Virus record (IMG/VR): IMGVR_UViG_3300037483_000835 | Coordinates: 1 to 61,359 of that record | DNA length: 61,359 nt | Origin: a virus | Lineage: Duplodnaviria > Caudoviricetes | Direction: 5' to 3' (one strand) | Shown: positions 27,001 to 44,825 of the stretch, in pieces | Layout: each line of letters begins with the position of its first letter | How positions within the stretch are numbered: the stretch's first letter is position 1 | The notes under the pieces: generated by a model | The model's input: the letters and a program-made list of their open reading frames with translations, nothing else | Told to the model about the DNA's origin: nothing | The model's database searches: none | Translations under genes and position numbers: made by a program

Positions 27001-27110
27001 GCCTTACTATATCATCCGAAGAGGAGCTTCGGTAGTAGGCACTTTCGACGTAGAACGAAACGAGCCTCCGACCGAAAACAGGCCGAAGGCTCGTAAGTTA
27101 CTCTAAATTG

Positions 27111-27184
27111 TCAGGGTGGCTGGATTCGAACCAGCGGCCTTCCGGTTCCGGGCCGGAAGCTCTACCAGGCTGAGCTACACCCTG
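27111..27184 (-). tRNA. tRNA-Pro(CGG), atypical (C33, A37, no encoded CCA)
   Basis: Full cloverleaf: CAGGGTG/CACCCTG acceptor, GCTC/GAGC D-stem, TCCGG-CCCGGAA-CCGGA anticodon arm, GCTGG-TTCGAAT-CCAGC T-arm; C1:G72 and A73 as in tRNA-Pro. Confidence 0.9.
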
Positions 27185-27920: not shown

Positions 27921-28082
27921 TTACGCCTGGACCGGGGCTGGTGCCACCGGGACCACGTCGACCTTGCGCTCACGAGCAGGGCGACACTCCTTGCAGAATG
28001 CGCGCGGACGCCCGCGGCCCTTGCTCTGCTCGAACTCCTTGCCGCACTTCTTGCAAATCGCCTTCTTCGTCTCGTTCTCCAT
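27921..28082 (-). CDS. 53-aa zinc-ribbon protein with AT-hook-like GRGRPR (not in ORF track)
   Basis: AAGGAG RBS; MENETKKAICKKCGKEFEQSKGRGRPRAFCKECRP...; followed by a terminator. Confidence 0.7.
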   Translation of the reverse strand: MENETKKAICKKCGKEFEQSKGRGRPRAFCKECRPARERKVDVVPVAPAPVQA

Positions 28083-28179
28083 ATCACTGCTCCTTTCTAC
28101 GGTGTAGATTACTGCTCGGAATTCAGTTTGTCAACCACACAAACTACTATATCACGACGGGAAGAGTTTCGACAGAAAC

Positions 28180-28437
28180 CTACCAGGCAACTCCGAAAAG
28201 TCTAGTCTTAGTGATCGACTCATCCGTCGCTCGCACCACGTGGTCCCTGATGAGGACCATCAACGCCGGCATCAACTTTTTTCGACACCCAGAACAAATA
28301 TCCCACCGCTCCTTGAACGAAAGGGAATTACCCGCATCATCAACCTTCGTGTATCCCATAGTAACTTCTAGGTGCCGATTCGACGAATGGTCCTCTATCG
28401 GATCGTTACAACGGTCGCAGTTCACGGTTACGCTCAT
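28180..28437 (-). CDS. zinc-binding hypothetical protein
   Basis: CDRC..DICSGC; GGGAG RBS. Confidence 0.7.
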   Translation of the reverse strand: MSVTVNCDRCNDPIEDHSSNRHLEVTMGYTKVDDAGNSLSFKERWDICSGCRKKLMPALMVLIRDHVVRATDESITKTRLFGVAW

Positions 28438-28481
28438 CGTTTTCTCCCTAGTTCTACGAGTAGTCCTGCATAGTCTACATC

Positions 28482-28500
28482 CTACTATATCACGACGGGA
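28482..28500 (-). promoter_or_regulatory. phage promoter motif GTGATATAGTAG (representative copy)
   Basis: 19-bp exact repeat with 28144-28162; related copies at about 12 intergenic sites. Confidence 0.75.
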
Positions 28501-28509
28501 GGGTCGTTC

Positions 28510-28540
28510 AAAAGAAAAGGCCCCGCCGGAGCAGGGCCTT
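28510..28540 (-). terminator. terminator after the major capsid gene
   Basis: AAGGCCCTGC-loop-GCGGGGCCTT followed by TTCTTTT. Confidence 0.8.
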
Positions 28541-28566
28541 CAGAAACTTCGAGTTACTTCAGCCTG

Positions 28567-29988
28567 TTACAGAGCGCCGACGAGGCTGTCGATAAGCGCG
28601 TTCTTCCTGGGCTGGAACACGGCCAGCGTCAGGAACCGGAAGTGAGCCTCCGGCTGCGTAAGCTGGGTCACGGCCAGCTTGAGGCGCGAATACGGGGCCA
28701 GCTCTTTGAGAGCAGCAGTATCCGTCTGGAGCAGGTAGCCGGTCACGAAACCAGGGAGCTTATTCCCGAGGTCCGAGAACGCCGTGGTGCCCGAGATGGC
28801 GCTAACCACGCGACCGATGAACCGACAAGCCGCAGGGTTGCTGATGCTCGCGCGGTACACGTTGAAATACTGCGTGCCCGCCGGAGCGGCCGTGATAACC
28901 AGCGCAACGCTACCCACGCTGCCCGAAGCGACGTTCGCCGCGGAGCTGATGACCGAGGGGCTACCTTCGCCGGCCGCGTTACAAGCCGTCACGACGTAGT
29001 AGTAGTTGCCGGTCGCGAGAGAGCCACCCGTGGTGGACCCGGTCGCCGAGGTGATGGCGGCCTGCGCGGGAGCCTGCGGACGGGTACGAGCCCAGGTCGT
29101 CTTGCCGGAGAGGAAACGGCTCGACTCGATGGTCACAACGCCGTTCGACACGTGCTGACGCCGAAGGTCGGCACCAGTAGAGTCGGCAGTGCCGCCCTGA
29201 TTCACGAACACGCGCTGAATCGTATTCGCGCCGAACTGACCGATGACGGTCTTGTTGTACGCGCTAAGAACCAGCGGGTCCACCAGGAGACGGTCGGCCT
29301 CGCCGAGGTTCATCTGACTACGGACGTGCGAGTCTTCAACGTTGTACGGCGTGAGGAAGCCGCCGCCGTAGAGAACGACGCTCAGGTTCGAGCCGTACTC
29401 GTCGAACATCAGGTCCTTAGCATTCGTCTGGAAGTCCGATGCGCGAATCTGAGGGTCGAGACCCAGCATGTTCGGCAGGTTCGGAATAACCAGCGGGTTG
29501 CCGTCGAAGATACCGGCGTTGGAGAAGTCAGCCTTGCCGCGGAACACATCGAATTCCACGTCGCCAGCTAGCTTCTTCGCAGCGTCTTCAGCAGCGCGCT
29601 CGTCGCTCTTCTTGCCATCAACAGTCGCCACGAGGGTCGACACGACGGTGACAGTACGAGTATGCGAGTAGAACGCCATCGGAACAACAACACGCACGTA
29701 GTCGGAAGTCTCTTCCATTCCGACAGCGCCTTCGAGCTGAGCCGACCCGCCGAAGTTACCGTAGCTGAGCTGACGGTCGAACTGCGCGAGGGTGGACTTC
29801 ACACTCTCAACCTTCAGGACCTTCTGAAGCTTGATGTGCTTCTCGCTATAAGTCACGTTTTGCATGACCGGCGAGAGGTCCTCGATTTGCAGAGCCGAGC
29901 CCTGAACGAGGGTGGACGGAGCTGCGTTATACTGGCCAGCTTCGAGGGCCTTAACCAGACCCTGGAGGTTTTCGACGAGGGAGTTCAT
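28567..29988 (-). CDS. major capsid protein (Herelleviridae-like HK97 fold)
   Basis: N-terminus LVKALEAG...GSALQIEDL and EDA..KLA..VEF..F.G resemble Twort/K/A511-type capsid proteins; strong codon bias; follows the scaffold gene. Confidence 0.88.
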   Translation of the reverse strand: MNSLVENLQGLVKALEAGQYNAAPSTLVQGSALQIEDLSPVMQNVTYSEKHIKLQKVLKVESVKSTLAQFDRQLSYGNFGGSAQLEGAVGMEETSDYVRVVVPMAFYSHTRTVTVVSTLVATVDGKKSDERAAEDAAKKLAGDVEFDVFRGKADFSNAGIFDGNPLVIPNLPNMLGLDPQIRASDFQTNAKDLMFDEYGSNLSVVLYGGGFLTPYNVEDSHVRSQMNLGEADRLLVDPLVLSAYNKTVIGQFGANTIQRVFVNQGGTADSTGADLRRQHVSNGVVTIESSRFLSGKTTWARTRPQAPAQAAITSATGSTTGGSLATGNYYYVVTACNAAGEGSPSVISSAANVASGSVGSVALVITAAPAGTQYFNVYRASISNPAACRFIGRVVSAISGTTAFSDLGNKLPGFVTGYLLQTDTAALKELAPYSRLKLAVTQLTQPEAHFRFLTLAVFQPRKNALIDSLVGAL

Positions 29989-30018
29989 TGTTTTTCTCCG
30001 GTTCCTTGTGAAAGGTTA

Positions 30019-31101
30019 TTACTTCTTTTCCGTGAAGATGACCGACAGGTCATCCACACCGATTCGACGGCAGTAGAAGTCGGTAACGAGGTCGCGCTCT
30101 TTCTTCGACAGCTCAGAGTCAGGCATCGTCATCTTCTTCAGCTCGGCGTGCAGAGCCGCCGGGTTCGCCTTCAGGGTTGCGAAGTCGGGCCTGGCAGTAG
30201 GCTCGCTCTTCTTTAGGTCGCCCTGATAGGGGATAATATTGAGACCATTGATAGCCTTGCGCTTCGGCATCGTAAGAACTGCCGTAAGAGCTTCGGTCAC
30301 CTTACCGAGGTCGTCTTGAGTCTTCTTCAGTTCAGCCGCGAAGTAGGACTCGGACTTGCCCATCGGGGGCATACCGGGACTCGGAGGAGCTGACGGAGGA
30401 GCGCCCATTCCAGGACTCGGAGGAGCCGAGGGAGGCATTCCACCACCACCACCCGGAGGCATCCCGGCATCCGGAGGAGCGCCCATCCCTGGGGCCCCAC
30501 CTGGAGCACCGCCGGCTGCGCCTTGAGCAGCTTGCTCGATGGCCATCATGTGAGCCTGGAGGTCCTCGGGAGGAAGCTGGGAGTACATCTGAACCAGCTC
30601 TTCGAAGGAGGGGCCAGCCGCAGGAGCTTGCGCTTGAGCGTCGGGCGGAGCGCCTTCAGCCGGAGGAGCGCCCGAAGGGTCGCCTTCGCCAGGCATACCG
30701 GCAGAAGCACTACCTTCCATGGGCGGCCCACCAGCATCAGCACTAGGCGAACCACCAGCGGACGGAGGCGAGCCCTCGTCTCCCGCGGAGGGGCTAGCCT
30801 TGGTCATCTTGGTAGGAAGCATCCCACCACCACTGGAGCTGGTCTCGCCCTTGTTGATGGTTTGCGGGTCAGAGGTAGCGACATGTTCGCCGCTGCCCTT
30901 CGCGCCGCCTTCCTTGATGGTCTGGCCGTCACTGGTAGCGACGGTTTCAGAACCGTTAGACTTAGCGAGGGGCTTGCCCATCGCCTCTTCGTTCTTCAGG
31001 ATGGCCTTGAGCGAATTGCCAACTTCAGCAACTAGCGCCATCACGTCATCGCCCGGAGTCATGAAGCCGGGCTGAACATTAACCTTGGGAGCCATTTTCA
31101 T
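30019..31101 (-). CDS. capsid scaffolding protein
   Basis: Immediately upstream of the capsid gene; Pro/Gly/Met low complexity; many x-x-K-S/G-E sites. Confidence 0.75.
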   Translation of the reverse strand: MKMAPKVNVQPGFMTPGDDVMALVAEVGNSLKAILKNEEAMGKPLAKSNGSETVATSDGQTIKEGGAKGSGEHVATSDPQTINKGETSSSGGGMLPTKMTKASPSAGDEGSPPSAGGSPSADAGGPPMEGSASAGMPGEGDPSGAPPAEGAPPDAQAQAPAAGPSFEELVQMYSQLPPEDLQAHMMAIEQAAQGAAGGAPGGAPGMGAPPDAGMPPGGGGGMPPSAPPSPGMGAPPSAPPSPGMPPMGKSESYFAAELKKTQDDLGKVTEALTAVLTMPKRKAINGLNIIPYQGDLKKSEPTARPDFATLKANPAALHAELKKMTMPDSELSKKERDLVTDFYCRRIGVDDLSVIFTEKK

Positions 31102-31126
31102 ATGTCCTTTCTATGGACCCCGAGAA

Positions 31127-31612
31127 TTACAGGTTGCTCAGCGTGCCGTTGCGAAGATCGATATTGTCAACCGAAGCGCGCAGGGTGGCAGCGCCGGGGG
31201 TGGCCTGGAAGGGGAAGTCGGCGATGGCGATATTGCTGCCGGCAGCCGTCTCCGAGTAGAAATCGACGTGAGTACCGAGCGACAGAACCTTCCAGTCGAC
31301 GATAGCCCGCTCCTTCTCCGTGGTGCCTGCCGAGAAGGGCGTGGTGATGTCGTAGAGGATGGCGGCGATGTGGGGAGTATAAACAGTCTGCGTAAGACCG
31401 AGGCTGTCGACAGCACCGCTCGCGGGAGGTGCGGCGGGGCGGAGGCTGATGAGAGCCTTGACCGAGTTGTTACCACCGGCTGCGAGAGCGACCGTGACAT
31501 ACACGTCAGTGTTGCTATCGAACGCGATAGAAACGGTGTAGAGAGAACCGAGAACCATGCTGAGGGTATCAGCAATGTCCTGGGCCCAGCGCTGGCACTT
31601 TTGATTAGTCAT
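31127..31612 (-). CDS. virion structural protein (possible capsid decoration)
   Basis: Shares DSLGL.Q.VYTPHI with 32021..33148; lies in the head cluster. Confidence 0.6.
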   Translation of the reverse strand: MTNQKCQRWAQDIADTLSMVLGSLYTVSIAFDSNTDVYVTVALAAGGNNSVKALISLRPAAPPASGAVDSLGLTQTVYTPHIAAILYDITTPFSAGTTEKERAIVDWKVLSLGTHVDFYSETAAGSNIAIADFPFQATPGAATLRASVDNIDLRNGTLSNL

Positions 31613-31724
31613 GACCTTATATTCTCCTGGTAGACGGGAAATTGTCTGTGTACTTCTGGTCTAATGGTCAGATTAACGTCGTTACTCACGAACAGGTTTC
31701 ATCAAAAGACCTAATCTTAGTTCC

Positions 31725-31997
31725 ATGACCAGATGCCCTACTTGCAGAAAGAGAAAGTCGCTCGACACCAACGGACAATGCAGAGCGTGTAATAAGTCCA
31801 TGGGCCTAAAACGATGTCGTGGTCCATGCGGAGAACTGCTACCGTACCTAATCAGCTTTTATAGGCAGGGATCACAGTGCAAACGGTGCTACGCTGAATA
31901 TTACCTAAAGCACCGCGACGAAAGGCTCCGCTACCAGCAGAAATACGACGCCACAAAGCTGAAGCCGCCCTCCCGTAATGGGAACGCGGCTTCGTGA
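31725..31997 (+). CDS. multi-zinc-finger protein
   Basis: CPTC, CRAC, CRGPC, CKRC. Confidence 0.6.
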   Translation: MTRCPTCRKRKSLDTNGQCRACNKSMGLKRCRGPCGELLPYLISFYRQGSQCKRCYAEYYLKHRDERLRYQQKYDATKLKPPSRNGNAAS

Positions 31998-32020
31998 CTC
32001 CTCGTACTGTGGTACGTGAG

Positions 32021-33148
32021 TTATACCTGAGCTAGAATACCCCACGGGATATTACGTAGCACTGTCTTCAGAAGCGCGCCGTTAACCAGGTCGCTCTCCA
32101 CAATACCCGCCTTCTCGTAAATGAGCAGCGCGGTTCCTGTTGGGGAACACTCAGCGACGAGGATGTCTCGCAGCGTGGTGCTGGTTCCAGCCGCCGTAGC
32201 GTTCGTGCCACCAGAAAGAGTCGCGGTAGCGACCGTCATTCCGCCACCAGTCTCCGTAACCGGAATCGCATTACCGGAAACACCTACCGAGACAGCTCTG
32301 ATAGTTACAACCGCCAGAGCGGAGGTAGCCGTCACGACACCCACGATACCGGCAGTAGCCGAGGCAGCGATAGCAGCGGCCAGATTCACAGCGCTGGCAG
32401 TGAGGTCGAGAGCGCCGCCCAGCAGAGTTGCCGCACCCCATGTGGCAACGCCATCGTTGGTGGTCGTTCCGTAAACGTTCCCGGCCGTCCCCTTCTTGAT
32501 AGCGGTAACGGTAACGGTAGAATCCACGCCCACTCCACCAAGAGTGGCTACGGCCGTGACTTGGGTATTGAGAGTGCCGTTCGCGGTAATCGCAGCGGCG
32601 ATAGCGGTTGCCGAAGTGTCGTCATTTGCGCCTGCGGCAAAATCGACGCCCTCAGTCAAAACCGTTCCGTTGATGGTGACTGTGCTGCCGGCACCAAAAG
32701 CGGTGTCTGCGCCGCCGCCGATGGTCAGTACACCGGTAGCTTGCGTGCCGACCAGGTTCCACTGGTCTCCCGCAGCACCCGTATCAACCGCCGTGAAATT
32801 GTGACTGTTTACGGTGAGCAAATCACCGGAAGTCAAATCAGCAAGCAACGTAGCGGTGTCGCTGGCGGCAGTACCAGGCGCTCCCGCGTCGATGCCTAGC
32901 TTGGTGATATGTGGCGTGTAAACACTCTGGGCCAGACCAAGACTGTCGAGGGCGCCGCTAGCCTGAGCGGACTGGACCTCAAACTTCACGAGAGCGCTAG
33001 AACCCGGAGCAGACGTGACAGTGAGGTAGAGGTCGCCGCTGGCGTCATGCGCCGAGACAACCGGGAACGGATTCGCGGCCGAAGCGAGCCGTAGAATAAG
33101 GTCGTCGGTCAGTGCGCGGCCGAGCCGCTCGATTTTAATATTTGTCAA
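32021..33148 (-). CDS. virion structural/decoration protein with nested beta-rich domains
   Basis: Paralog of 31127..31612 with an Ala/Thr/Gly-rich insert; AAGGAG RBS, TTG start. Confidence 0.65.
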   Translation of the reverse strand: MTNIKIERLGRALTDDLILRLASAANPFPVVSAHDASGDLYLTVTSAPGSSALVKFEVQSAQASGALDSLGLAQSVYTPHITKLGIDAGAPGTAASDTATLLADLTSGDLLTVNSHNFTAVDTGAAGDQWNLVGTQATGVLTIGGGADTAFGAGSTVTINGTVLTEGVDFAAGANDDTSATAIAAAITANGTLNTQVTAVATLGGVGVDSTVTVTAIKKGTAGNVYGTTTNDGVATWGAATLLGGALDLTASAVNLAAAIAASATAGIVGVVTATSALAVVTIRAVSVGVSGNAIPVTETGGGMTVATATLSGGTNATAAGTSTTLRDILVAECSPTGTALLIYEKAGIVESDLVNGALLKTVLRNIPWGILAQV

Positions 33149-33171
33149 GGGAGTTCTCCTTGAACGCTAGA

Positions 33172-34116
33172 TTAGCGCTCGAAAGAGACCCAGCCCTCAT
33201 CCGAAAGACGAATACTCTTCGCCAACGCAGCTCGGGCCGTGAAACCGTACTGACGAGGAGCGACTAGGTCTCCGTACCATTCGATGAGCTGTTCCATTTT
33301 CATGAACGCTGCCCCATCCGGAGATAGACCAGCACTATTGGCGAGAAAGAAGACCGGAACGGGTCTGGCTCTATTATCGTGAACGAGTACCATCGGCGCT
33401 TCGGATTTCCCCATCCAAGACTGGGACGCGGTTCGAATCTGCATCGGCGATGTACCAGGCGGTACAGCCTGCTTCAAACCAGGAGGCAGGCCCTCGGGCT
33501 CCTTCGAAACAGGCACTTCACCAACAGAACCAGCCAAAAGAGAATGAGCGTGGGTCTGAGCCTGACCTGGAAGATAGCCAGCCCGTTTCTTTGCCGTCTT
33601 AGCGTGGATAAGAGCCTGCTCCGCATGTTCAGGATTATGACCGAATCCGATGCTCCCCGAATGGAAGTGTTGGCCCATCACGGGAGGTAGAGCCTCCAGC
33701 TCTGAACGCGCAGCGCGAGCGAAGGAATATGCTTGTTCGGGTGTGTCAAAGTGGGCGCGAAATTCATCCCCGCCGACTCGGAACAGCTTCCCTTTATTTA
33801 CCCGAGAAGCACGAGACAAAGCACCGCCCATCGCTTTGATAGCCTCGTCGCCAACCGACTGGCCCCACTTTTTGTTGATGGTCCCGAAATCGTTCGCATC
33901 GAACATTACATGCACGCCCTTACGAGGGCGGCTCTGGAAGTCTTCCCAGGCTAGCTTGTTACCAACGCCCTTAACCATCGAATCGGAGAACAGACGCTGA
34001 GCCAAGAAACGAGCAGAATCTGGAGCAACGGAGCGCATGGCAGCAAGGTGCTGGGCGAGTTCAGGTTCGACCTTGGAAAGCGGCATCTCGTGAATCTTCA
34101 CGCTAAAATCAGCCAT
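33172..34116 (-). CDS. GGDEF diguanylate-cyclase domain protein
   Basis: FDANDFGTINKKWGQSVGDEAI, FRVGGDEF, SIG. Confidence 0.9.
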   Translation of the reverse strand: MADFSVKIHEMPLSKVEPELAQHLAAMRSVAPDSARFLAQRLFSDSMVKGVGNKLAWEDFQSRPRKGVHVMFDANDFGTINKKWGQSVGDEAIKAMGGALSRASRVNKGKLFRVGGDEFRAHFDTPEQAYSFARAARSELEALPPVMGQHFHSGSIGFGHNPEHAEQALIHAKTAKKRAGYLPGQAQTHAHSLLAGSVGEVPVSKEPEGLPPGLKQAVPPGTSPMQIRTASQSWMGKSEAPMVLVHDNRARPVPVFFLANSAGLSPDGAAFMKMEQLIEWYGDLVAPRQYGFTARAALAKSIRLSDEGWVSFER

Positions 34117-34305
34117 TACAAGTCCCTTGGTACCGGGTCACCCGGGAAAATCTTCTCAGTGCCAGGCAGTGGCTCCACGCATGTGTTATCGGCTGCGACC
34201 TGAGCCATCCTAACCTCGAGTCTCCCTAGAGTCGTCTTGTGGCCCGCGTAGACACCCAAGAAAAACACAACGAAGAGAAGAATTGCCACGTAAATCAGAC
34301 GCATA
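34116..34305 (-). CDS. small membrane-anchored protein
   Basis: MRLIYVAILLFVVFFLGVYAG hydrophobic N-terminus; start approximate. Confidence 0.5.
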
Positions 34306-34308
34306 TTG

Positions 34309-34620
34309 CTACTCCTGGGGCCACGATTCACTACCCAACTCCAGCTCAGGCACAAGGTCCGCTCTTTTGCCTTGATTCAAGTCATCCTCTTTTACAAGCT
34401 CCCAGTAGGCAGACTGTCCGTTCTCCATGGACTGCATTCGGCGCAACTCACGGCCCGTTACCGGTCCCGATGGAAACATACCTTCCAAGGCACCGTCGTG
34501 GTCCTCCATTATCGTAAGGTCGCCACCGTGAATGGCGAAGCGACCCATAAGACGGTGCGTCTCGCCCTTCTCACCTTGCAGCTTACGGTAGAGCAACCAA
34601 ATACCTGGTTCAAGTGCCAT
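34309..34620 (-). CDS. hypothetical protein in the head module
   Basis: AAGGA RBS, directly after the protease polyprotein. Confidence 0.65.
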   Translation of the reverse strand: MALEPGIWLLYRKLQGEKGETHRLMGRFAIHGGDLTIMEDHDGALEGMFPSGPVTGRELRRMQSMENGQSAYWELVKEDDLNQGKRADLVPELELGSESWPQE

Positions 34621-34622
34621 GA

Positions 34623-37600
34623 TTATGTCATCCTTCCTAGCTCTGCGCCAGAGGGGGTGCGGTCTTCGGTTGCGGGGTTATGCGCAGCGGCTACGTCTTC
34701 GACGTTGGCTCGACCGTACGATGTCTCAAGGAATGGCGAGTAATACGCCGCACCCTTGGTTACCGGAGGATTCTTGAAGACGAAGGGCTTCCCGTCTGGG
34801 CTCTTATTTGCAAGACGATTCTGAAGAGCCCCCAGTCGGCGCACACTCTCAGCACGTTGCTTTTGAGGTACGCCTAAACGCTCCATCATATCGCCCAGCT
34901 TCTGCGGGTTTAGTTTTTGGGCCCAAGCTACGGCTTCTGGATGAAGAGGCTCCTCTACCCATTCGTTACCCGTGTTCGCCGACCAATAATGTGGAACGTT
35001 GGGAACTTCATCTTCCCCGTACATCGACAGCCCGTTATCGTTCAAGTGAATATACGGAGCTTTTTTCGGGGTAAGCATGTAGTTACCGGAGTGTCTATCA
35101 ACCTGGTCCAGTATCATATCCATCAGGGCCAACTTGTCAAGCTGCCCCATATGGCGTAGTCTTTCGATGGTCGCGCCATGCTCCGGATTCGACGGCTCGT
35201 AGTGTTCGACGTCCTCAACTCTACGCTGCGCAGAATAGGGCTGACCAGTCGTAGGATGGTGGAATACTGCCGTGGTAGGCACGTGCTGTCCCAGCTTAAA
35301 AAAGTTCTTCGCCAAGTTATGGAAAGTGGCCTCGCGATGCGCCGTAGTAAATCCTTCCTGATTAAATACGCCCAAATGCGAATTCATGGCGAAATTAGGC
35401 TTGACGTAGCTGATATGTCCAGCACGGCTCTGACGCCAGCCAGTCTCATTACCGGCTTGGGCAGCGCTCATACCTCGACGTTCACCAACCTGTCTAGGCA
35501 GCGCCTCCTTGGCAAGGTCCATTCCGTGTAACATCGCCTGCTGGTCTGGATGTTCAGAGAGTCCCGGAGCGCCATGCTTCTTTGCGTCCACCAACTGGAA
35601 GCCCAACCCCGACGCCTTCGGTTCCGAGTTGATGCGATAGGATTTCGCACCGGCCTTTACCTTCCTAACCGAACCACCATCGTCCACATGATGCCACTCG
35701 CTACCTATGTCTAGTAGCGGGAATTTGCCTTTATGCGGGCCCTCCAAAATCTCCAGCTCACCAGGGAACACCATCTTCCCGCTGAACGGAACCGCCTTCG
35801 GCTTCTTGACTTTGGGCTCGCCCTTCGCCAACTCTTGAAGCTGCTCGGCCAGGGCTTCGGCTTTAGCCAACTCCTTGTTATGTAGAACGGCCGGTATCAT
35901 AGTCGAATAAAGAGCGAGGGTCGCCGGCACAAAGCCGAATTGGTTCTCCAGCTCCTTTGTCGCATGCGCGACACGGGCGGCCATAGAACCGCCATCATCC
36001 ATCTCGTGCTTGATAAGACGATGGTCGTGCGGAATTCCGTACTTGGTAAGTACGCGCTTGACGGCATTCCAGAACACGCCGTGGTCGGTCTCGGCGTTTT
36101 TCGCCTGGCCACGCTCAAACCAACCACGACGCTTCTCGTGGGGTTGAATAGTCAGCCAGTGCAACCAAAAAGAAGGGAACAGGGCCTGTTCGCCTAGGTC
36201 TTCACCGAACTGCTGCTGAATCTTTGCGCGAGTGTGGGCGACGGCCGGATGATGAGCCAAATAATACTTGTCGATTTCGGCAAGCAAGGGCTCATTCTTC
36301 TCATTCCAGAGATACTTCTTCAACACGTCCGAGCGGGGGTCGGCAGTATGAAGACCAAACGTGTGACGGATAAAGTGGGTATCAGGAACCACGACGTTGC
36401 CAGCGCCCATCATACCGAGCAAATAACGGATAGTCTTTGGCGCGAAACCCTTAACGTCAGGGTCTTCGCCCTGCTTCTTTGTACCAGCTCGCTGCTTCAT
36501 GTCGTTGAGGAGGCCCGCGATGGTGCGCGCGTCCGTTCCATGTTTCGCAACCAAGTCAACGAGAGTCTCGTGTAGCTCGTGGTAGTTCTTTACTCCACCC
36601 CACTTCTGCGCTCCCAGACCGATGATGTAACGACGGCCCTCTTCAGTCCAAATGCCCGAGGTACGTTTCGCAAAATGGTCACGCTCCCAAGCGGGTAAAT
36701 GCTGCCCCTTAGAGATAGAATTCCACTCTTTAGCATATCGTGCCAACTCCTTGCGTGACAGCTCTTTCGTGGGATCAAGACCCTCGAAGCCGCCCTTGCC
36801 GGTCGGGGGGCCCATCATGTCCATCAAGTGACCATAGGCCAACTCTTGCATCGGCACAGCCGTATTGGGCGACATAGCGCTAAAGAGGGACGCAAGAGCT
36901 ACCATCTCCTGAGGGGCCTTCCCCGCCCGCATCGTCTTATGTACCATCACCCAATTCTTCAGCGCGGTGTCGTGGATATGATTCAGTCCAGGGTCTTTAA
37001 GAATCTCGCCATACCCCCGGTCATTAAGGTCTGGGATATAAACCTTGAATCGCCCATCCGCAGTGTGAAGAACGCCACCGCCGTGGTCGAAATAAGCTTC
37101 ACCGTGCTTCAGGCGCTTGCCTGTACGCACCTTAAACTCGGGCGATTCAGCCGGTGGAAGCGCAGGGCCCTCGTCGGTGACCACACCCATACCGGGCAAT
37201 CCCACTTGCTTCGGCGCTGCAACCGCCGCCTGAATACCTTTCAGCTTGTGTTCGTATTTCTTCTGCTTCGCCTTAAACGCAGTCGAACCGGTAGACATAC
37301 CTGAGCCCGAACGTGTAATACGACCACCAGGCTCCTGGACCTCTTCATCTTCGGCCTTTGCCAGCATCTGCTGCTTAGTTACCTTCCAGTCTCCGACAGC
37401 CTCAGCGAATCGATCTAGGAAGCTATCGCTTGCCTCGGGAAGAGAGTGCTTCGCGTACTCCTTAAAAGGACCGTGCTTGTCCGGGTCATAATCGCGAAGT
37501 GCGGCTTTAGCCTTAGCGGCAAATCCCACATCATGTAGCTCGCGACCGAAGTCCTCCCGCTGGAGAGCTGCGCCTCCCGTGAGCGAGCCCGGAGCGGCAT

Positions 37601-38300
37601 TGTAGTTACCGGCCGTAATGGTTTTGGCTAGAATGTTGAGACGGTCGGTCAAGTCGCTCACGTCGTGGATTTCGGGGTCGCAAGCGATGGTCGGGGAACC
37701 GCCGAGTCGGCGCTGGTCAGGATTTTCATGCTTCTTTGTGCCAATAAGGAACGCGAGCGGGTCCTCCGGCTGCGTAGACTCAGACACCTTCTTCGAATCG
37801 TCCTCACCATCGGAAATGACACCCGATATGGCGCTCTTATTCGCCGGTTTGATAGTGAGAGCCACCCTTCTCGCAATGGTCCTATCCAACATGGGACCGT
37901 TCTGTTCCAGAGTGGAACCTTCGATACTGTATCGGATAAGGATAGGCAGGCCCTTATTCCTGTAGTGACGGACCATGGCGGCACAGGCAACCGCACCAGG
38001 GTGCCCCTCGTCGTTGAATAGTTCCACCTTCCCGTAGATGAACGGGACCTGCACAAAGTCCCAATACTCTCTCTCTCGAGCGTTTGAACAATCACCCCGA
38101 GTGAAAATTTTCTTGGCGTACGTCACTCGGCCTACATGGTCGTTCGCGCTGTGGCCCGGGTCCTTGTCTCCAAGGTGCTCCCAATTTGCTGTGGCACGAC
38201 CAGCCTGAAGGTCGCTGATATCAGCACCCTTTATAACGACGATTTCGGCGCTGGAGTCGGGCTGCTCCGACGCAAAAACCCCGTCCAATATCATTCCCAT
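34623..38300 (-). CDS. prohead protease fused to capsid-arm mimic, HhH-GPD glycosylase-like domain and PI3/4-kinase-like domain
   Basis: N-terminal NWEH..YSIEG..VALTIKPAN (HK97/S78-type protease); GFAPKT..VVPDTHF; YVKP..HRE..DQVDRHSGN..LNDNG. Confidence 0.85.
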   Translation of the reverse strand: MGMILDGVFASEQPDSSAEIVVIKGADISDLQAGRATANWEHLGDKDPGHSANDHVGRVTYAKKIFTRGDCSNAREREYWDFVQVPFIYGKVELFNDEGHPGAVACAAMVRHYRNKGLPILIRYSIEGSTLEQNGPMLDRTIARRVALTIKPANKSAISGVISDGEDDSKKVSESTQPEDPLAFLIGTKKHENPDQRRLGGSPTIACDPEIHDVSDLTDRLNILAKTITAGNYNAAPGSLTGGAALQREDFGRELHDVGFAAKAKAALRDYDPDKHGPFKEYAKHSLPEASDSFLDRFAEAVGDWKVTKQQMLAKAEDEEVQEPGGRITRSGSGMSTGSTAFKAKQKKYEHKLKGIQAAVAAPKQVGLPGMGVVTDEGPALPPAESPEFKVRTGKRLKHGEAYFDHGGGVLHTADGRFKVYIPDLNDRGYGEILKDPGLNHIHDTALKNWVMVHKTMRAGKAPQEMVALASLFSAMSPNTAVPMQELAYGHLMDMMGPPTGKGGFEGLDPTKELSRKELARYAKEWNSISKGQHLPAWERDHFAKRTSGIWTEEGRRYIIGLGAQKWGGVKNYHELHETLVDLVAKHGTDARTIAGLLNDMKQRAGTKKQGEDPDVKGFAPKTIRYLLGMMGAGNVVVPDTHFIRHTFGLHTADPRSDVLKKYLWNEKNEPLLAEIDKYYLAHHPAVAHTRAKIQQQFGEDLGEQALFPSFWLHWLTIQPHEKRRGWFERGQAKNAETDHGVFWNAVKRVLTKYGIPHDHRLIKHEMDDGGSMAARVAHATKELENQFGFVPATLALYSTMIPAVLHNKELAKAEALAEQLQELAKGEPKVKKPKAVPFSGKMVFPGELEILEGPHKGKFPLLDIGSEWHHVDDGGSVRKVKAGAKSYRINSEPKASGLGFQLVDAKKHGAPGLSEHPDQQAMLHGMDLAKEALPRQVGERRGMSAAQAGNETGWRQSRAGHISYVKPNFAMNSHLGVFNQEGFTTAHREATFHNLAKNFFKLGQHVPTTAVFHHPTTGQPYSAQRRVEDVEHYEPSNPEHGATIERLRHMGQLDKLALMDMILDQVDRHSGNYMLTPKKAPYIHLNDNGLSMYGEDEVPNVPHYWSANTGNEWVEEPLHPEAVAWAQKLNPQKLGDMMERLGVPQKQRAESVRRLGALQNRLANKSPDGKPFVFKNPPVTKGAAYYSPFLETSYGRANVEDVAAAHNPATEDRTPSGAELGRMT

Positions 38301-38333
38301 GAAGTGACCGCCTGCGAAAAGGGTCCAGTCGGT

Positions 38334-38339
38334 AGATTA
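38334..38339 (-). promoter_or_regulatory. putative late promoter TAATCT (representative copy)
   Basis: Found shortly upstream of most structural gene starts. Confidence 0.55.
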
Positions 38340-38519
38340 GCTCTTGACGAATACTTCGGATTTCAGTAGGGTGCTCCTTGCGAGGCGATGCCGGCTCGCA
38401 CGCACGAGCGGCTAGGCGTGGGTGCGTCAAACCCAGATGACCTAGCCGACCCGAAAGGGGTAAGCCTCACTTGTTGGTTCGGGGCACCGAAGAACAAGGA
38501 CAGGCAGCCGGCCATACAT

Positions 38520-38882
38520 ATGAACGAGACCATCGTTTACCGAGTGCAGGACCGATTTGGAAGAGGTCCCTATCGCTGCGACGACATGAACGTAGCGCCA
38601 AACGTGGATTGGCTGAGACACCCCGCGCCGCGCGAAGACTTCGAGGTCTTCAACTGCCGAGAAGATGGTTGGTACTCGGCATTCATAGAGTTGATTCGGC
38701 CATACAAATTCGGATTTCCCACTCTCCAAGCAGCCTTCAACTGGTTCCACGAAGACGAACTCCAAGAAATGTCTCAGCTCGGATTCCACTTGGTCGAAAT
38801 CAAGGCTGAGTCAGTGGTAGTCTCGGACTCCGGACGGCAGTGCATTTTCATCCCACTTGACAAGTTCTACGCGAATATGTAG
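38520..38882 (+). CDS. stand-alone GRGPY-domain protein, paralog of a module in protein A
   Basis: IVYRVQDRFGRGPY..FGF..WF..GF..SDSGRQ matches protein A at about 6630-6935. Confidence 0.75.
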   Translation: MNETIVYRVQDRFGRGPYRCDDMNVAPNVDWLRHPAPREDFEVFNCREDGWYSAFIELIRPYKFGFPTLQAAFNWFHEDELQEMSQLGFHLVEIKAESVVVSDSGRQCIFIPLDKFYANM

Positions 38883-38885
38883 TAT
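38857..38885 (+). promoter_or_regulatory. sigma70-type early promoter
   Basis: TTGACA-N17-TAGTAT. Confidence 0.8.
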
Positions 38886-38911
38886 ACCGTAAATCAATCA
38901 AGGAGAAGTCC

Positions 38912-39172
38912 ATGAAGACGATCATTGCCCTGCTGGCACTCGCTCTCACCGCTTGTGGAGGTCCCACGGCCCTCTACGAGGGCGAGGCTCCGCCGCCCAA
39001 CTTCGACTGCGTCTGTCGCACCGAGGCTGATGCCCGGAACCAGAAGCCCGAGCTGTACTTGGGCTTTCATCTCGATGCCGACGAGTACCACGCAAAGCTG
39101 AACGAGGCTAGCCGCCTGTGCTTCCAGAAGATGGGCCCCTGCTCTTGTAGGTCCTGCTGGCCCATCGAGTAG
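38912..39172 (+). CDS. small lipoprotein
   Basis: Signal peptide with lipobox LTAC; AAGGAG RBS. Confidence 0.8.
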   Translation: MKTIIALLALALTACGGPTALYEGEAPPPNFDCVCRTEADARNQKPELYLGFHLDADEYHAKLNEASRLCFQKMGPCSCRSCWPIE

Positions 39173-39385
39173 CGAACAACATAGGAGATATTATGCGAAT
39201 CCCAGACATCCGTCGTAGGCCGTGGCAAAACATCGACTTCATGATAATCGGGGCGCTGGGCATGTTCGACGGACTGGCTAAGGTCCTTTCACTAGGCTTC
39301 GCTCAAACCAACGTCGAGATGAGCTACCTCTGCTGGCGCACCCAGCAGACGATGAAGCGACAGTAAGCAGCGGCGGGGAGAGCCG

Positions 39386-39414
39386 TTGACAAAATCCTCG
39401 TGGGAGGCTATAAC
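39386..39414 (+). promoter_or_regulatory. sigma70-type early promoter
   Basis: TTGACA-N17-TATAAC; ATG at 39421. Confidence 0.85.
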
Positions 39415-39420
39415 AGAACC

Positions 39421-39975
39421 ATGACAAACAACGAACTCATCGCCGCGCTCAAGGCTCTCCCCGCCGCGAATTCCGCTGCCATCCGCGCCATGCCGCAGGC
39501 CGAGCTGGAAACCATTCTCCAGGCCACCTACGACCTCTCGAACGAGAATAATCATCAGGAGTGGCTGTACATCTACGAGGCGGCTGGCGGCGAGGCAGCG
39601 TACAAGGCAATCCCCTACGGGTCCGAGAAGTTCAGCGACCTCATCCGGTTCGGCAAGCAGAAGGTCGCGGCCCGGCACCCCGAGTTCGTGGAGCTGGCGG
39701 CTCTCGTCCAGGACCTTCGCCGCTCCGTCATCAACCGCGAGCTGCGCCGCCGTTCGATGCTCGCCATGAAGGCCGCGAACACCACCTATCGCGCCGCCAT
39801 CGCCGTCGAGACTGGCGCCTACCAGGTCGGCGACAAGGTCCAGGTCCACGCCTTCGGCCACTGGTACGACGGCAAGGTCCTCAAGCTCGGCCGCACGGGT
39901 AAGGTCACGGTCGGCTACACCTCGGGAACCGGTACGTACCGCGAGAAGTCTGTCGGCAAGGACAAGATTCGCTAG
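39421..39975 (+). CDS. early hypothetical protein with C-terminal SH3-like domain
   Basis: YQVGDKVQV...G.WYDGKV; strong codon bias. Confidence 0.75.
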   Translation: MTNNELIAALKALPAANSAAIRAMPQAELETILQATYDLSNENNHQEWLYIYEAAGGEAAYKAIPYGSEKFSDLIRFGKQKVAARHPEFVELAALVQDLRRSVINRELRRRSMLAMKAANTTYRAAIAVETGAYQVGDKVQVHAFGHWYDGKVLKLGRTGKVTVGYTSGTGTYREKSVGKDKIR

Positions 39976-39982
39976 GAGAGTC

Positions 39983-40333
39983 ATGATTTGCCCCATCCAT
40001 AAATACTCCCTGGGTCAGTGCTCCTCCTGCGACACCGACCCGCGACCGATGATTCGATACTTCCTGAACCGCGATGAGCCGCTCCCCTCGGATGTGGCAG
40101 TCGTCATCAGCTACCAGGTCTGTCGACTCCCATCGCTCTCGCACCTGTACACGAAGACAGAAGTCTATAAATGGTATTTCAAAGATGGCGCCACGCTCGA
40201 GTGTCAGGAATGTGGCGCTATCTGGGGTAGCGACGACACGAAACCCGTCCACATGGACAAGTGTCCCGAATGCGGCTGGAGCAACAGCGACCAGACCACG
40301 TTCGAGGCGAACCTCGAGAAAGGGAAGTCATGA
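39983..40333 (+). CDS. zinc-finger hypothetical protein
   Basis: CxxH/CxxC pairs; AGGAG RBS. Confidence 0.65.
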   Translation: MICPIHKYSLGQCSSCDTDPRPMIRYFLNRDEPLPSDVAVVISYQVCRLPSLSHLYTKTEVYKWYFKDGATLECQECGAIWGSDDTKPVHMDKCPECGWSNSDQTTFEANLEKGKS

Positions 40334-43101: not shown

Positions 43102-43404
43102 ATGACCAAGACCGAGCTGTATTTCGGACGCAATTCACCCAACGGCCACATCGACGACAATCAATTCCGTGAGTTCCGCCGCCAGGAAATCGAATCGCGC
43201 TTCGAGGGCTTCTCACTCTTCGACGGGCTCGGCTGCTGGAAGGGTTATGCCGAGCACTGCAAGGTACTGGTCGTGATTTGGGACAACACCCACCAGAATC
43301 TATACGACAGCTACAAAATCGACGCCATTCGCTCGGCTTACGTCAAGAGGTTCAGTCAGGAGTCGGTGATGCGCGTCGACCAGGAAGTGAAGGTCGAGTT
43401 TTAG
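43102..43404 (+). CDS. DUF3574-like protein
   Basis: ELYFGRN..RF.GF..G.G.W..E..KVL..I..IR.AY..F.QESV.RV pattern. Confidence 0.7.
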   Translation: MTKTELYFGRNSPNGHIDDNQFREFRRQEIESRFEGFSLFDGLGCWKGYAEHCKVLVVIWDNTHQNLYDSYKIDAIRSAYVKRFSQESVMRVDQEVKVEF

Positions 43405-44825
43405 AGCGGCTTCAGGGGTATGTGCGTCATACCCGAACGGCGTGCGGCCTCGAGCTGTTCGTGTCCCTGGTCCACCAGCCACGTGCCGTTGCCCTGGTCC
43501 ATGGCGGTAACCGGCGGAACCTTGTGACCCTGACCACGGGCAAAATTGGCCTCGTGGAGGGAGGTCTTCCACTCCTCGTGATTGTTCGTCGGGATAACCT
43601 GAGCGATAGGGGCGCTTACCAGTCCCTCGTGTCCGGCCGGCGACCAAGTCTTCGTCTCGGGCTTCTCCTCGGCGAAGCCTGGCACCTCGTAGCCGAGAGC
43701 GCGGTAATGTGGCGCGAAGTCGTGGCGCGCAAGCGGGATAACCTGGCCGTTCTTGCGGTCGATGGTGAGTCCCGCTTGCTTCAAATATTTGTTACGCAGC
43801 ATGTCATCGTCGATGGGCTTGGCGCCCGAGACATGGTTGCGCTTCATCGGGATGGGCCGCGCGGTAGGCAACGACGGGTGATTCCAGATGACGTGCCCGC
43901 CATCCTCGCGCTCGACCGCCCAACCGTAGTGCTCGAGGGCTCGCTTGAGGTCGGCGTACTTCACGTCATACTTCATCAGCGGCTCGCCGAACTCGTCCTC
44001 GGTCTTGTTCAGCCCTAGTTTCTTCCGACGTGCTTCGAGACCTGAGGTGGGACGTTCCTTAAACCCGTGCTGATAATCGTACTCGCGATGGTCGGCGTGC
44101 ACCCAAGAGATACGACCTTGGCCATCGAACCCGAACCCGGGCAGGACGGTGGCTAGAGCACACCGGCAGTGTGGATGCATCAAGTGCCAACTTGGGACAT
44201 TCTCTCCTCGAATATGATATTCCGTTGACACCTCGCTAGAACGAAACACGCGCGGAGTGAATCCGTCCGGAAGCAAATGGACGCGTCGACACTCCTTACA
44301 CAAGGCCGTATCCTTCACCGGGATAAAACACACGACAGGGTCTTCGACGCCCAGGCCGTCATTCACCTGGTCTATCCCCTCTTTTACACCGATGGTCTGA
44401 GCGTGCTGAGTCTCGGAAGCAACGACCGACTGAACGCCGTTCTTGACCTTACCCCAAAGCTCGGCCAGCTCACCTTCGACAGCAGTATTCCAGTCCTCTG
44501 GCTTCAACTGGCCCTGGTCAATATCGTGAAGCAGACCTTGTAGCCGGCGCTTCGTGTCCGCCTTAGCCTGCGCACGATGCTTGTTGATGAAATCCTCGGC
44601 CACCGAGGCGATACCCTCAACGATTTCAGTATCTACTCTCCCGCCCTCTTCACTAACGGCCGCAGAAAAGATGCCGGGCAGCGTGAAATCATGGGTGTAT
44701 CCGATGAACAGCTTCTTCCCGGTGAACGCGCCGCCGAGCAAACGCGTAAGCAGGGTGTCGAATATATCATCCACCTCCGCGTCGATAGCCGCCCGTTGCT
44801 GGGCGTTCAGTCTAGGTACGGACAC
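43401..44825 (-). CDS. MuF-like minor head protein with C-terminal HicA-like and ParB/Srx-like domains
   Basis: CKEC..HPHCRC; L...GW...R..G.H..W.HP...IP...H; PPV...G.W.V.QGHEQ..AA...G...IP; follows the portal gene. Confidence 0.8.
   Translation of the reverse strand: MSVPRLNAQQRAAIDAEVDDIFDTLLTRLLGGAFTGKKLFIGYTHDFTLPGIFSAAVSEEGGRVDTEIVEGIASVAEDFINKHRAQAKADTKRRLQGLLHDIDQGQLKPEDWNTAVEGELAELWGKVKNGVQSVVASETQHAQTIGVKEGIDQVNDGLGVEDPVVCFIPVKDTALCKECRRVHLLPDGFTPRVFRSSEVSTEYHIRGENVPSWHLMHPHCRCALATVLPGFGFDGQGRISWVHADHREYDYQHGFKERPTSGLEARRKKLGLNKTEDEFGEPLMKYDVKYADLKRALEHYGWAVEREDGGHVIWNHPSLPTARPIPMKRNHVSGAKPIDDDMLRNKYLKQAGLTIDRKNGQVIPLARHDFAPHYRALGYEVPGFAEEKPETKTWSPAGHEGLVSAPIAQVIPTNNHEEWKTSLHEANFARGQGHKVPPVTAMDQGNGTWLVDQGHEQLEAARRSGMTHIPLKPL

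Follow-up and report, generated by a model that had tools for sequence, protein, structure and literature searches.

Head proteases of large myoviruses, such as T4 gp21, phiKZ gp175 and SPN3US gp245, are assemblin-fold serine proteases, and T4 gp21 is a protein of 212 aa. SPN3US gp245 removes its own 64-residue C-terminal propeptide, its reported cleavage sites end in Glu, and the SPN3US head carries many ejected proteins (PMC10052503). In addition, polyvalent phage proteins combining several unrelated enzyme domains with an assemblin-like peptidase in one polypeptide have been described among virion genes, with that peptidase at the C terminus. Kinase and GGDEF modules occur in these proteins, and their packaging into the head and delivery are predicted (PMC5512222). 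Furthermore, the T4 record notes that Alt is present in the capsid and enters the host with the infecting DNA.

Herein, an Mx1-like phage fragment of 61,359 nucleotides (the window; IMG/VR record IMGVR_UViG_3300037483_000835) was analysed, in which the putative capsid-maturation protease forms the N-terminal end of a 1225-residue protein that also contains a predicted DNA-glycosylase-like domain and a PI3K/PI4K-like kinase domain. In contrast to T4 gp21, about 1050 further residues follow the protease. The initial annotation, which proposed a protease carrying and self-releasing a base-excision enzyme and a kinase, was supported in its three-domain layout, whereas carrying and self-release of the cargo remain inferred. 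As assemblin-like peptidases within multi-enzyme phage proteins are already in print, the fusion principle is also less unprecedented than that annotation assumed.

Organisation of the protease-anchored polyprotein

One uninterrupted ORF was found on the minus strand between positions 34623 and 38300, within the head-gene block. It lies between the portal gene (44829-46979) and the major capsid protein gene (28567-29988), the position of head proteases, and the same order is seen in Myxococcus phage Mx1. The syntenic Mx1 homologue, annotated as 'putative prohead protease', shows 34% identity over 96% of the query, and 273 homologues were found at E<=1e-3 among 7998 scored candidates, so that a chance ORF can be excluded. 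In a 65-sequence alignment, three conserved blocks (aa 1-168, aa 396-810 and aa 959-1168) are separated by poorly conserved, gap-rich linkers. The features of the locus are as follows.

34623..38300 (-): whole ORF, 1225 aa, protease-anchored polyprotein
37797..38300 (-): aa 1-168, predicted capsid-maturation protease domain (assemblin / T4 gp21 fold)
37725..37733 (-): K190-H-E192, conserved K/R-x-E just after the protease domain, an inferred candidate self-cleavage site
37401..37661 (-): aa 214-300, segment whose first 50 residues copy the N terminus of the major capsid protein, a proposed (inferred) prohead-targeting element
37350..37358 (-): K315-A-E317 (LAKAE) in the variable linker 2, a weakly supported candidate cleavage site
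35871..37115 (-): aa 396-810, predicted HhH-GPD-superfamily (glycosylase-like) domain with an extra N-terminal beta-hairpin and C-terminal helices
36363..36461 (-): aa 614-646, helix-hairpin-helix with K622, then D640-T-H
36003..36011 (-): K764-H-E766 in a disordered loop between the glycosylase-like core and its C-terminal helices, a candidate cleavage site
35856..35864 (-): K813-A-E815 (LAKAE), conserved K-x-E after the middle domain, with a second K-G-E (aa 826-828) at 35817-35825
35427..35765 (-): aa 846-958, moderately conserved block (MID2) that travels with the kinase
34797..35426 (-): aa 959-1168, PI3K/PI4K-like kinase domain
34309..34620 (-): 103-aa ORF starting 2 nt after the stop
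33172..34116 (-): 314-aa GGDEF nucleotide cyclase
29839..29988 (-): first 50 residues of the major capsid protein, the original that aa 214-263 of the polyprotein copy

Predicted folds and conserved residues of the three domains

The N-terminal domain was modelled over aa 1-165 with pLDDT of 94 or more in most blocks. By structural comparison (VIA), the model matched only capsid-maturation proteases, namely T4 gp21 (5jbl_B) at Z 10.6 with an rmsd of 2.3 over 120 aligned residues, followed by 35 herpesvirus assemblin entries at Z 5.6-9.3, and then by unrelated MCE domains at Z 5.0 or less. H42, H100 and S125 were invariant in 65 of 65 sequences, as well as in a set of 31. However, no Pfam protease family matched (0 of 40 members at E<=0.1), hhalign to T4 gp21 gave a probability of 2.1%, and Foldseek E-values were weak. 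The domain is therefore an assemblin/gp21-like relative by fold only, and the 'S78-type' assignment of the initial annotation is imprecise.

The middle domain contains SAMSPN (aa 474-479), GFAPKT (aa 618-623) and VVPDTHF (aa 637-643), the motifs quoted in the initial annotation. Its model (pLDDT 89.1) matched HhH-GPD enzymes in all 22 top rows of a search against representative structures, the best being the Ogg2-type 8-oxoguanine glycosylase Tm1821 (3n0u) at Z 14.3, with an rmsd of 3.3 and 207 residues aligned of a 209-residue chain, while the next rows were unrelated at Z 5.3 or less. Endonuclease III, which shares the two-lobed helical fold, scored Z 6.9. The G.(G/A).KT...VPDTH stretch was aligned by hhalign with E. 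coli EndoIII residues 110-144, placing K622 on K120 and D640 on D138, although this alignment spans only 35 columns (E 0.0022, probability 12.8%). D640 is invariant in 65 of 65 sequences and K622 is conserved in at least 90%, and both are invariant in 20 of 20 domain sequences. The assignment rests on fold plus this one local motif, as Pfam HhH-GPD and PDB sequence profiles gave nothing, Foldseek E-values were weak and identity is 13% or less. Relative to Tm1821 and EndoIII, about 110 extra residues are inserted in the core, in addition to the N-terminal beta-hairpin and C-terminal helices. No cysteine is present, and thus no Fe-S cluster, as is probably also the case in the Ogg, AlkA and MagIII branches. 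The sequence family is closed, with 216 clusters, almost all inside large phage proteins.

The C-terminal domain carries the DRHxxN catalytic loop and a DFG-like D-x-G metal-binding motif at the spacing of the PI3K/PI4K/PIKK family (PF00454), with K967, E990, D1068-R-H-x-x-N1073 and D1088 conserved. A domain profile hit PI4KA (3.5e-4), mTOR (7e-4), ATM, PI3K-alpha and Vps34, and Pfam PI3_PI4_kinase matched 29 of 40 members (best 3.4e-6). Some relatives pass the Pfam threshold of 27.1 bits (the related proteins P0219, P0227 and P0167, with 29.4, 27.5 and 27.4 bits), but the domain from the window itself scores only E 0.11, below the threshold. Furthermore, the domain comprises only about 210 residues, lacks helical and FAT domains, and has the Phe of DFG replaced (IDHG/NDNG). 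The kinases described among polyvalent proteins are truncated Ser/Thr/Tyr kinases rather than PI3K/PI4K-like ones, and in the main text of that report the word 'glycosylase' does not occur and 'HhH' occurs once (PMC5512222).

Capsid-like segment, linker motifs and exchangeable modules

In the polyprotein, aa 214-263 copy the first 50 residues of the phage's own major capsid protein (phrog_752 major head protein, 2e-41), with 20/50 identical residues and E 8e-10 by BLASTP. An HMM of this segment hit the N terminus of 47 capsid-protein-like ORFs in the 77 loci examined. No capsid-protein mimic is described in the consulted passages of PMC5512222, its supplements and figures excluded.

The 'K motifs' of the initial annotation correspond to the five K-x-E triplets listed above. 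K-x-E was found to be about 2.2 times more frequent than in shuffles in linker 1 (52 of 65 sequences have at least one) and in linker 3 (56 of 65), and to be depleted in the folded protease, capsid-like and MID2 blocks, at 0.45-0.61 of expectation. These sequences are related, so the counts are not independent. Linker 2, where a cut would be needed to free the glycosylase-like domain from the capsid-like segment, shows no family-wide enrichment (ratio 1.09, 39 of 65). The triplets sit in low-confidence loops of the models: pLDDT is low at K190-H-E192 and below 50 at residues 383-388 of the middle model, around K764-H-E766. K764 is nearly invariant in 20 sequences, and K813 is at least 90% conserved. 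The related motif [AGS]K[AGS]E is enriched in this protein (3 against 0.38 expected) and in two neighbouring giant multi-enzyme ORFs (6 against 0.47; 2 against 0.27), and is absent from terminase, the capsid protein and ThyX. However, the K-x-E at capsid protein aa 59-61 is not conserved, so the motif is not validated on the classical substrate. The candidate motif has Lys at P3, whereas the T4 motif is probably L/I-x-E and that of phiKZ/SPN3US A/S/G-x-E.

The part behind the protease and the capsid-like segment is exchangeable among relatives. Among 72 distinct protease ORFs, 18 have glycosylase-like plus kinase modules, 14 kinase only, 10 glycosylase-like plus GGDEF and 5 GGDEF only, while four complete ORFs carry nothing beyond the protease and the capsid-like segment, which is kept even there. 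MID2 co-occurs with the kinase, and in one of the loci (L030) the kinase part is a separate ORF. The GGDEF cyclase (Pfam GGDEF 2.2e-12) is a separate gene here and in Mx1, but GGDEF is present in 8 of 10 relatives' C-terminal extensions, with blastp E-values of 1e-31 to 1e-41. Similarly, the 103-aa ORF matches the C-terminal extensions of 7 relatives (E 1e-9 to 4e-5), in which the homologous segment lies inside the polyprotein.

Possible roles of the fused enzymes

Altogether, these results are best explained, with moderate confidence, by a prohead serine protease forming the N-terminal domain of a multi-enzyme 'polyvalent' polyprotein whose cargo is loaded into the head. In this inferred mechanism, the capsid-protein-like segment lets the polyprotein co-assemble inside the prohead, by making the contacts to scaffold or to neighbouring capsid subunits that the real capsid N terminus makes. 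On activation, the protease would cut after Glu in the K-x-E sites of the flexible linkers, as T4-type head proteases cut after Glu, freeing the glycosylase-like enzyme (about 50 kDa) and the kinase (about 45 kDa). These enzymes would stay in the head and be ejected with the DNA into the next host, where the former would attack an N-glycosidic bond, most likely in DNA through a Lys-Schiff-base glycosylase/lyase reaction, and the latter would phosphorylate an unknown host substrate. Packaging, cleavage and ejection are all inferred, and carrying and self-release of the cargo are supported only by the conserved linker sites, the modular cargo in relatives and precedent. In T4, the cargo is probably separate from the protease, with a targeting peptide that does not resemble the capsid protein.

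A shared fold does not fix the substrate, and it remains possible, though doubtful, that the middle domain is not a DNA glycosylase but hydrolyses the N-glycosidic bond of a free or signalling nucleotide, as QNG1 does with queuosine monophosphate, or only binds DNA. QNG1/DUF2419 entries are among its structural matches (Z 8.9 and 8.2, and several Foldseek rows), no sequence-level link to any DNA glycosylase family was found, and the domain is fused or adjacent to nucleotide-centred enzymes, including GGDEF as well as NUDIX and radical SAM in a neighbouring giant ORF. On this reading, it would belong with the GGDEF, NUDIX and kinase modules as a nucleotide-signal interference set. In addition, Mx1 is not stopped by the M. 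xanthus CBASS / type III CRISPR island that stops Mx4, and countermeasures are suspected (PMC11506125). Nevertheless, the match to a DNA glycosylase at Z 14.3 is well above that to QNG1, and the DNA-binding helix-hairpin-helix is conserved together with the Lys and Asp at the EndoIII spacing of 18 residues, a pair that is likely the signature of bifunctional DNA glycosylase/lyases.

It is also unlikely, but conceivable, that the long extension is mainly an internal scaffold or core component, as may be the case in the herpesvirus protease-scaffold precursor, and that the enzymes act on phage DNA in the producer cell or the filling capsid, in repair, base modification or packaging quality control. 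The capsid-like segment and the helical stretches at aa 258-317 and 340-361 could be scaffold-like, the best structural match of the middle domain is a repair enzyme, a BFVD row weakly names a thymine-hypermodification enzyme (Pplase1, probability 0.38), and ThyX is encoded in the window. However, a separate Pro/Gly/Ala-rich 360-aa ORF sits directly before the capsid gene, in the usual scaffold position, the four cargo-free relatives indicate that the enzyme domains are dispensable for head assembly, and the companions of the domain (kinase, GGDEF, GNAT, ParB-like) are those of conflict-type polyvalent proteins (PMC5512222). Less likely still is a fusion serving expression only, in which the enzymes are made as one late polyprotein for stoichiometry, cut off in the cytoplasm and not packaged. 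Gene fission and fusion are frequent, as the separate GGDEF and L030 kinase ORFs illustrate, so that physical linkage to the protease is not obligatory. Against this, head proteases of this fold appear to be active inside proheads in T4 and SPN3US (PMC10052503), and late cytoplasmic enzymes would not need K-x-E linkers shared with the giant virion-type ORFs. Moreover, the cargo always lies behind the capsid-protein-like segment in the head-gene block, and the genes remain adjacent when split.

Genomic context and domain organization

The linear viral record is estimated to be 38% complete, and the ORF under study lies on its minus strand within a block of head genes, in the following order:
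48030-50024 (-), large terminase
44829-46979 (-), portal, followed by a few small genes
34623..38300 (-), the ORF under study, encoding 1225 aa and designated P0001
33172-34620 (-), a 103-aa ORF and a GGDEF protein (the latter at 33172-34116), followed by three ORFs without matches
30019-31101 (-), the last of these three, a 360-aa ORF directly before the capsid gene
28567-29988 (-), major capsid protein (phrog_752, 2e-41)
27110-27184 (-), a single tRNA-Pro (anticodon CGG), between the head genes and ThyX

The placement of the gene in the head module between portal and major capsid protein is shared with Myxococcus phage Mx1 and with T4. The 360-aa ORF has a long Pro/Gly/Ala-rich centre and five K-x-E motifs (1.7 expected), and although no family match was found, it is the likely scaffolding protein. 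Mx1 was the only hit in the phage collection searched, with 34% identity over 96% of the query; there the syntenic gene encodes 1239 aa and is annotated as 'putative prohead protease', although the Mx1 genome announcement does not discuss it. The family is nevertheless large, comprising 273 proteins at E<=1e-3 among 7998 scored candidates, many of them on contigs of about 160-180 kb. In contrast, searches with the whole protein yielded almost nothing: Pfam returned only PI3_PI4_kinase at E 0.11 (12.9 bits against a gathering threshold of 27.1), PHROGs and a phmmer search of PDB sequences returned no match, and the full-length profile against PDB gave only a chance row. A megablast search of positions 28000-40000 against phages also found no match.

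In a 65-sequence alignment, the following blocks of P0001 were conserved, whereas aa 169-213 (linker 1), aa 301-395 (linker 2), aa 811-845 (linker 3) and the tail were variable and gap-rich:
aa 1-168, predicted capsid-maturation protease domain
aa 214-300, segment resembling the N terminus of the major capsid protein
aa 396-810, predicted HhH-GPD-superfamily (glycosylase-like) domain
aa 846-958, conserved block termed MID2
aa 959-1168, PI3K/PI4K-like kinase domain

Predicted folds and sequence motifs of the three enzyme-like domains

The N-terminal domain was not recognized by sequence libraries. The initial annotation had named it an S78-type (HK97 type) protease; however, no protease family matched P0001 at E<=1, none matched any of 40 family members at E<=0.1, and the domain is not a member of Pfam S78. 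An AlphaFold2 model of aa 1-385, built with 65 sequences, was confident for aa 1-165. In a Foldseek search, the top rows were herpesvirus assemblins or T4 gp21, although the best E-value was only 2.6e-3. Realignment with VIA-align gave T4 gp21 (5jbl_B) at Z 10.6 (rmsd 2.3, 120 residues aligned) and 35 assemblin entries at Z 5.6-9.3, while unrelated MCE domains scored 5.0 or below. H42, H100 and S125 were found to be invariant in 65 of 65 and in 31 of 31 sequences. Alignment of the protease profile to T4 gp21 by hhalign gave a probability of only 2.1%, and hence no sequence-level support. The domain is therefore assigned as an assemblin/gp21-fold head protease by predicted structure and gene position.

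For the middle domain, the model of aa 380-830 reached pLDDT 89.1 and pTM 0.82. Foldseek was again weak, listing Tm1821 at probability 0.93 together with several QNG1 rows, and neither this model nor the N-terminal one gave a PDB match at E<=1e-3, so that both fold assignments rest on VIA-align and on the consistency of the rows. A VIA-align search of 48,161 representative chains placed the Tm1821 8-oxoguanine glycosylase first at Z 14.3 (rmsd 3.3, 207 residues aligned of a 209-residue chain), and the rest of the 22 top rows were MagIII, hOGG1, EndoIII-3, QNG1, Mag1, ROS1, MUTYH, NTHL1, MutY, AlkA, EndoIII, MIG and AGOG, down to Z 6.1. Only then did unrelated short helical matches appear, at Z 5.3 or less and on a different part of the model. 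Helical models can reach Z 13-14 by chance with this method; nevertheless, real kinship is supported by the origin of all 22 top rows from one superfamily, by the almost complete coverage of the top chain, and by agreement of a residue-level motif. This motif was obtained by hhalign of a 20-sequence domain-only alignment against E. coli EndoIII, a local match over 35 columns (E 0.0022, probability 12.8%) in which aa 614-646 align with EndoIII 110-144, so that K622 falls on K120 and D640 on D138. These would correspond to the Schiff-base lysine and the catalytic aspartate of EndoIII, consistent with the helix-hairpin-helix, Gly/Pro-rich loop and invariant Asp of the superfamily and with the hairpin Lys of its bifunctional members. 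Both residues are invariant in the 20 domain sequences, and in the 65-sequence alignment D640 is invariant in 65 of 65 and K622 in at least 90%. The domain has no cysteine, so no iron-sulfur cluster.

No sequence method linked the middle domain to known glycosylases. Phmmer gave no match, the domain profile against PDB sequences gave nothing relevant, and Pfam HhH-GPD was not hit at E<=10 by any of 20 domain sequences. A profile search of 1.84 billion representatives returned only the family itself, a closed set of 216 clusters at 50% identity (183 of them at E<=1e-30), almost all inside large phage-type proteins. These results define a phage-restricted, highly divergent branch of the superfamily, as judged by predicted fold, that sequence-based annotation misses completely. 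BFVD gave only weak rows, the best at E 0.013 and mostly uncharacterised phage proteins. In an ESM Atlas feature search with aa 396-770 (35991-37115), 27 of 30 named hits were viral clusters carrying Pfam DUF7178 (PF23802), but HMMER saw no relation and no paper mentioning this family was found. A search for shorter homologues gave a single hit, protein P0202 (598 aa), in which the domain is fused to an N-terminal GNAT acetyltransferase. In some relatives (L030:11432-13216, L030 being one of the related viral loci; proteins P0227 and P0105), the domain is interrupted by intein-like inserts with Intein_splicing scores just below the Pfam threshold. Several other relatives have inserts near profile positions 100 and 240 that Pfam does not recognise, and position 240 lies just before the Lys-bearing hairpin.

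The C-terminal domain is PI3K/PI4K-like on the basis of sequence. Pfam PI3_PI4_kinase (PF00454) matched 29 of 40 family members at E<=0.1 (best 3.4e-6), and three further relatives scored just above the curated threshold, while the ESM Atlas feature search gave PF00454 only as a lead. A 23-sequence kinase-only profile hit PI4KA (3.5e-4), mTOR (7e-4), PI4K2B, ATM, PI3K-alpha, Vps34 and PI4KB, with E 3.5e-4 to 8e-3 for PI4KA, mTOR, ATM, PI3K-alpha and Vps34. The match runs through the catalytic loop (DRHxxN) and the following metal-binding D-x-G motif. D1068 and D1088 are invariant in 23 of 23 sequences, R1069 and N1073 are conserved in at least 90%, and K967 is nearly invariant. This compact kinase-like domain is present twice in the phage, since a paralogue ends a neighbouring 1720-aa ORF at 4960-10122 (-) (hhalign 98.6%, E 7.5e-16), in which the catalytic loop reads DSH where DRH is usual. 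The same ORF carries a phrog_1106 domain shared with the small ORF 38388-38882.

Capsid-like segment, exchangeable modules and candidate cleavage sites

Residues 214-263 of the polyprotein align with residues 1-50 of the phage's own major capsid protein, with 20 of 50 identical and E 8e-10. An HMM built only from the polyprotein segment aa 212-300 found the N terminus of 47 capsid-protein-sized ORFs in the 77 loci examined, many of the remaining loci ending before the capsid gene. Furthermore, this segment is the only thing kept behind the protease in the shortest natural forms. A complex prediction of the capsid protein with aa 205-305, run without controls, returned no answer (score 0.00), which counts neither for nor against binding.

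To examine the variability of the downstream part, 76 related viral loci were collected, and five domain HMMs, together with the 103-aa and GGDEF proteins, were mapped onto them. There were 72 distinct protease-bearing ORFs including Mx1, of which 16 run off their locus; the complete ones include the architectures listed below.

Architectures found after the protease and capsid-like segment among complete ORFs, with counts
Glycosylase-like plus kinase (16 with, 2 without the MID2 block): 18
Kinase, no glycosylase-like domain: 14
Glycosylase-like plus GGDEF: 10
GGDEF only: 5
Nothing further (304-400 aa): 4

Pfam confirmed GGDEF in 8 of the 10 C-terminal extensions submitted, while one of the other two was an intein-like insert and one had no match. 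The 103-aa ORF and the GGDEF cyclase are separate genes here and in Mx1, but the fused regions of many relatives are homologous to them, and this gene-fusion link puts the cyclase in the same module. In addition, the kinase part is a separate downstream ORF in one locus (L030), in another locus (L055) the glycosylase-like domain sits in a protein without protease, and one relative (P0202) fuses it to a GNAT.

Candidate cleavage sites of the form K-x-E occur at aa 190-192, 315-317, 764-766, 813-815 and 826-828. The first, third and fourth are positionally conserved across the family and lie in low-confidence or loop regions of the models. Compared with shuffled sequences, K-x-E is enriched 2.2-fold in linkers 1 and 3 and depleted in the folded protease, capsid-like and MID2 blocks, but it is not enriched in linker 2. 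The narrower motif [AGS]K[AGS]E is over-represented in this protein and in two neighbouring giant ORFs, including the 1720-aa ORF (six against 0.47 expected), and is absent from most non-virion proteins tested. Because the sequences are related, these counts are suggestive rather than independent tests. Moreover, the K59-V-E61 of this phage's capsid protein, considered as an independent check of the motif, is not conserved in 46 aligned capsid N termini. Head proteases of this fold cut after Glu, as illustrated by SPN3US sites such as ARE-12 and E-124 (PMC10052503), and the T4 rule is probably L/I-x-E.

A proposed model of enzyme loading and relation to polyvalent proteins

The simplest reading joins these facts in a model in which the head protease is the anchor of a polyvalent polyprotein, the capsid-arm copy takes it into the prohead, the protease frees the cargo at linker sites, and the cargo is delivered with the DNA. 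Packaging, cleavage, ejection and substrates are all inferred. On this reading, the system would represent a natural and modular means of loading enzymes into a phage head, in which the protease and a 50-residue capsid-protein mimic are followed by exchangeable cargo, and for which minimal and loaded versions both exist in nature.

The model fits the published concept of polyvalent proteins (PMC5512222), as two or more unrelated effector-type domains are contained in one polypeptide encoded with the virion genes of a portal-terminase phage. That work mentions assemblin-like peptidases, but 'always' at the C terminus, whereas here and in all 72 related ORFs the peptidase is N-terminal. No description of the present architecture was found in the Mx1 announcement, in the main text of the polyvalent-protein paper or in further literature searches, although supplementary material was not covered and the domain-architecture catalogue of PMC5512222 may already list related architectures.

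A more far-reaching possibility, which appears unlikely on present evidence but is not excluded, is that Mx1-like phages use a previously undescribed loading principle, in which a copy of the capsid protein's own N-terminal arm, placed right behind the head protease, acts as a universal adaptor that draws whatever enzyme is fused downstream into the prohead, be it a divergent HhH-GPD N-glycosidase, a PI3K/PI4K-like kinase or a GGDEF cyclase. The protease would then free the cargo at K-x-E sites, and the delivered set would be a first-minute counter-defence kit aimed at host nucleotide-based immunity or at host DNA marks. Mx1 escapes a CBASS / type III CRISPR island of M. xanthus that blocks Mx4 (PMC11506125). 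This escape could be explained by such a kit and makes a counter-defence role worth considering, but it does not show it.

The other giant multi-enzyme ORFs of the window, which carry kinase, radical SAM plus NUDIX, and GNAT, also fit the proposed model. Beyond the 1720-aa ORF, two of these, together with a further ORF of the head-gene block, are as follows:
11029-15573 (-) and 15574-20529 (-), two giant ORFs that look like polyvalent proteins, one with Radical_SAM (aa 1135-1295) plus NUDIX (aa 1386-1488) and the other with GNAT (aa 764-851) plus LRV repeats
43401-44825 (-), a 474-aa ORF right after the portal gene that contains a HicA-toxin-like domain (aa 291-353, Pfam 1.1e-6), a possible portal-associated effector
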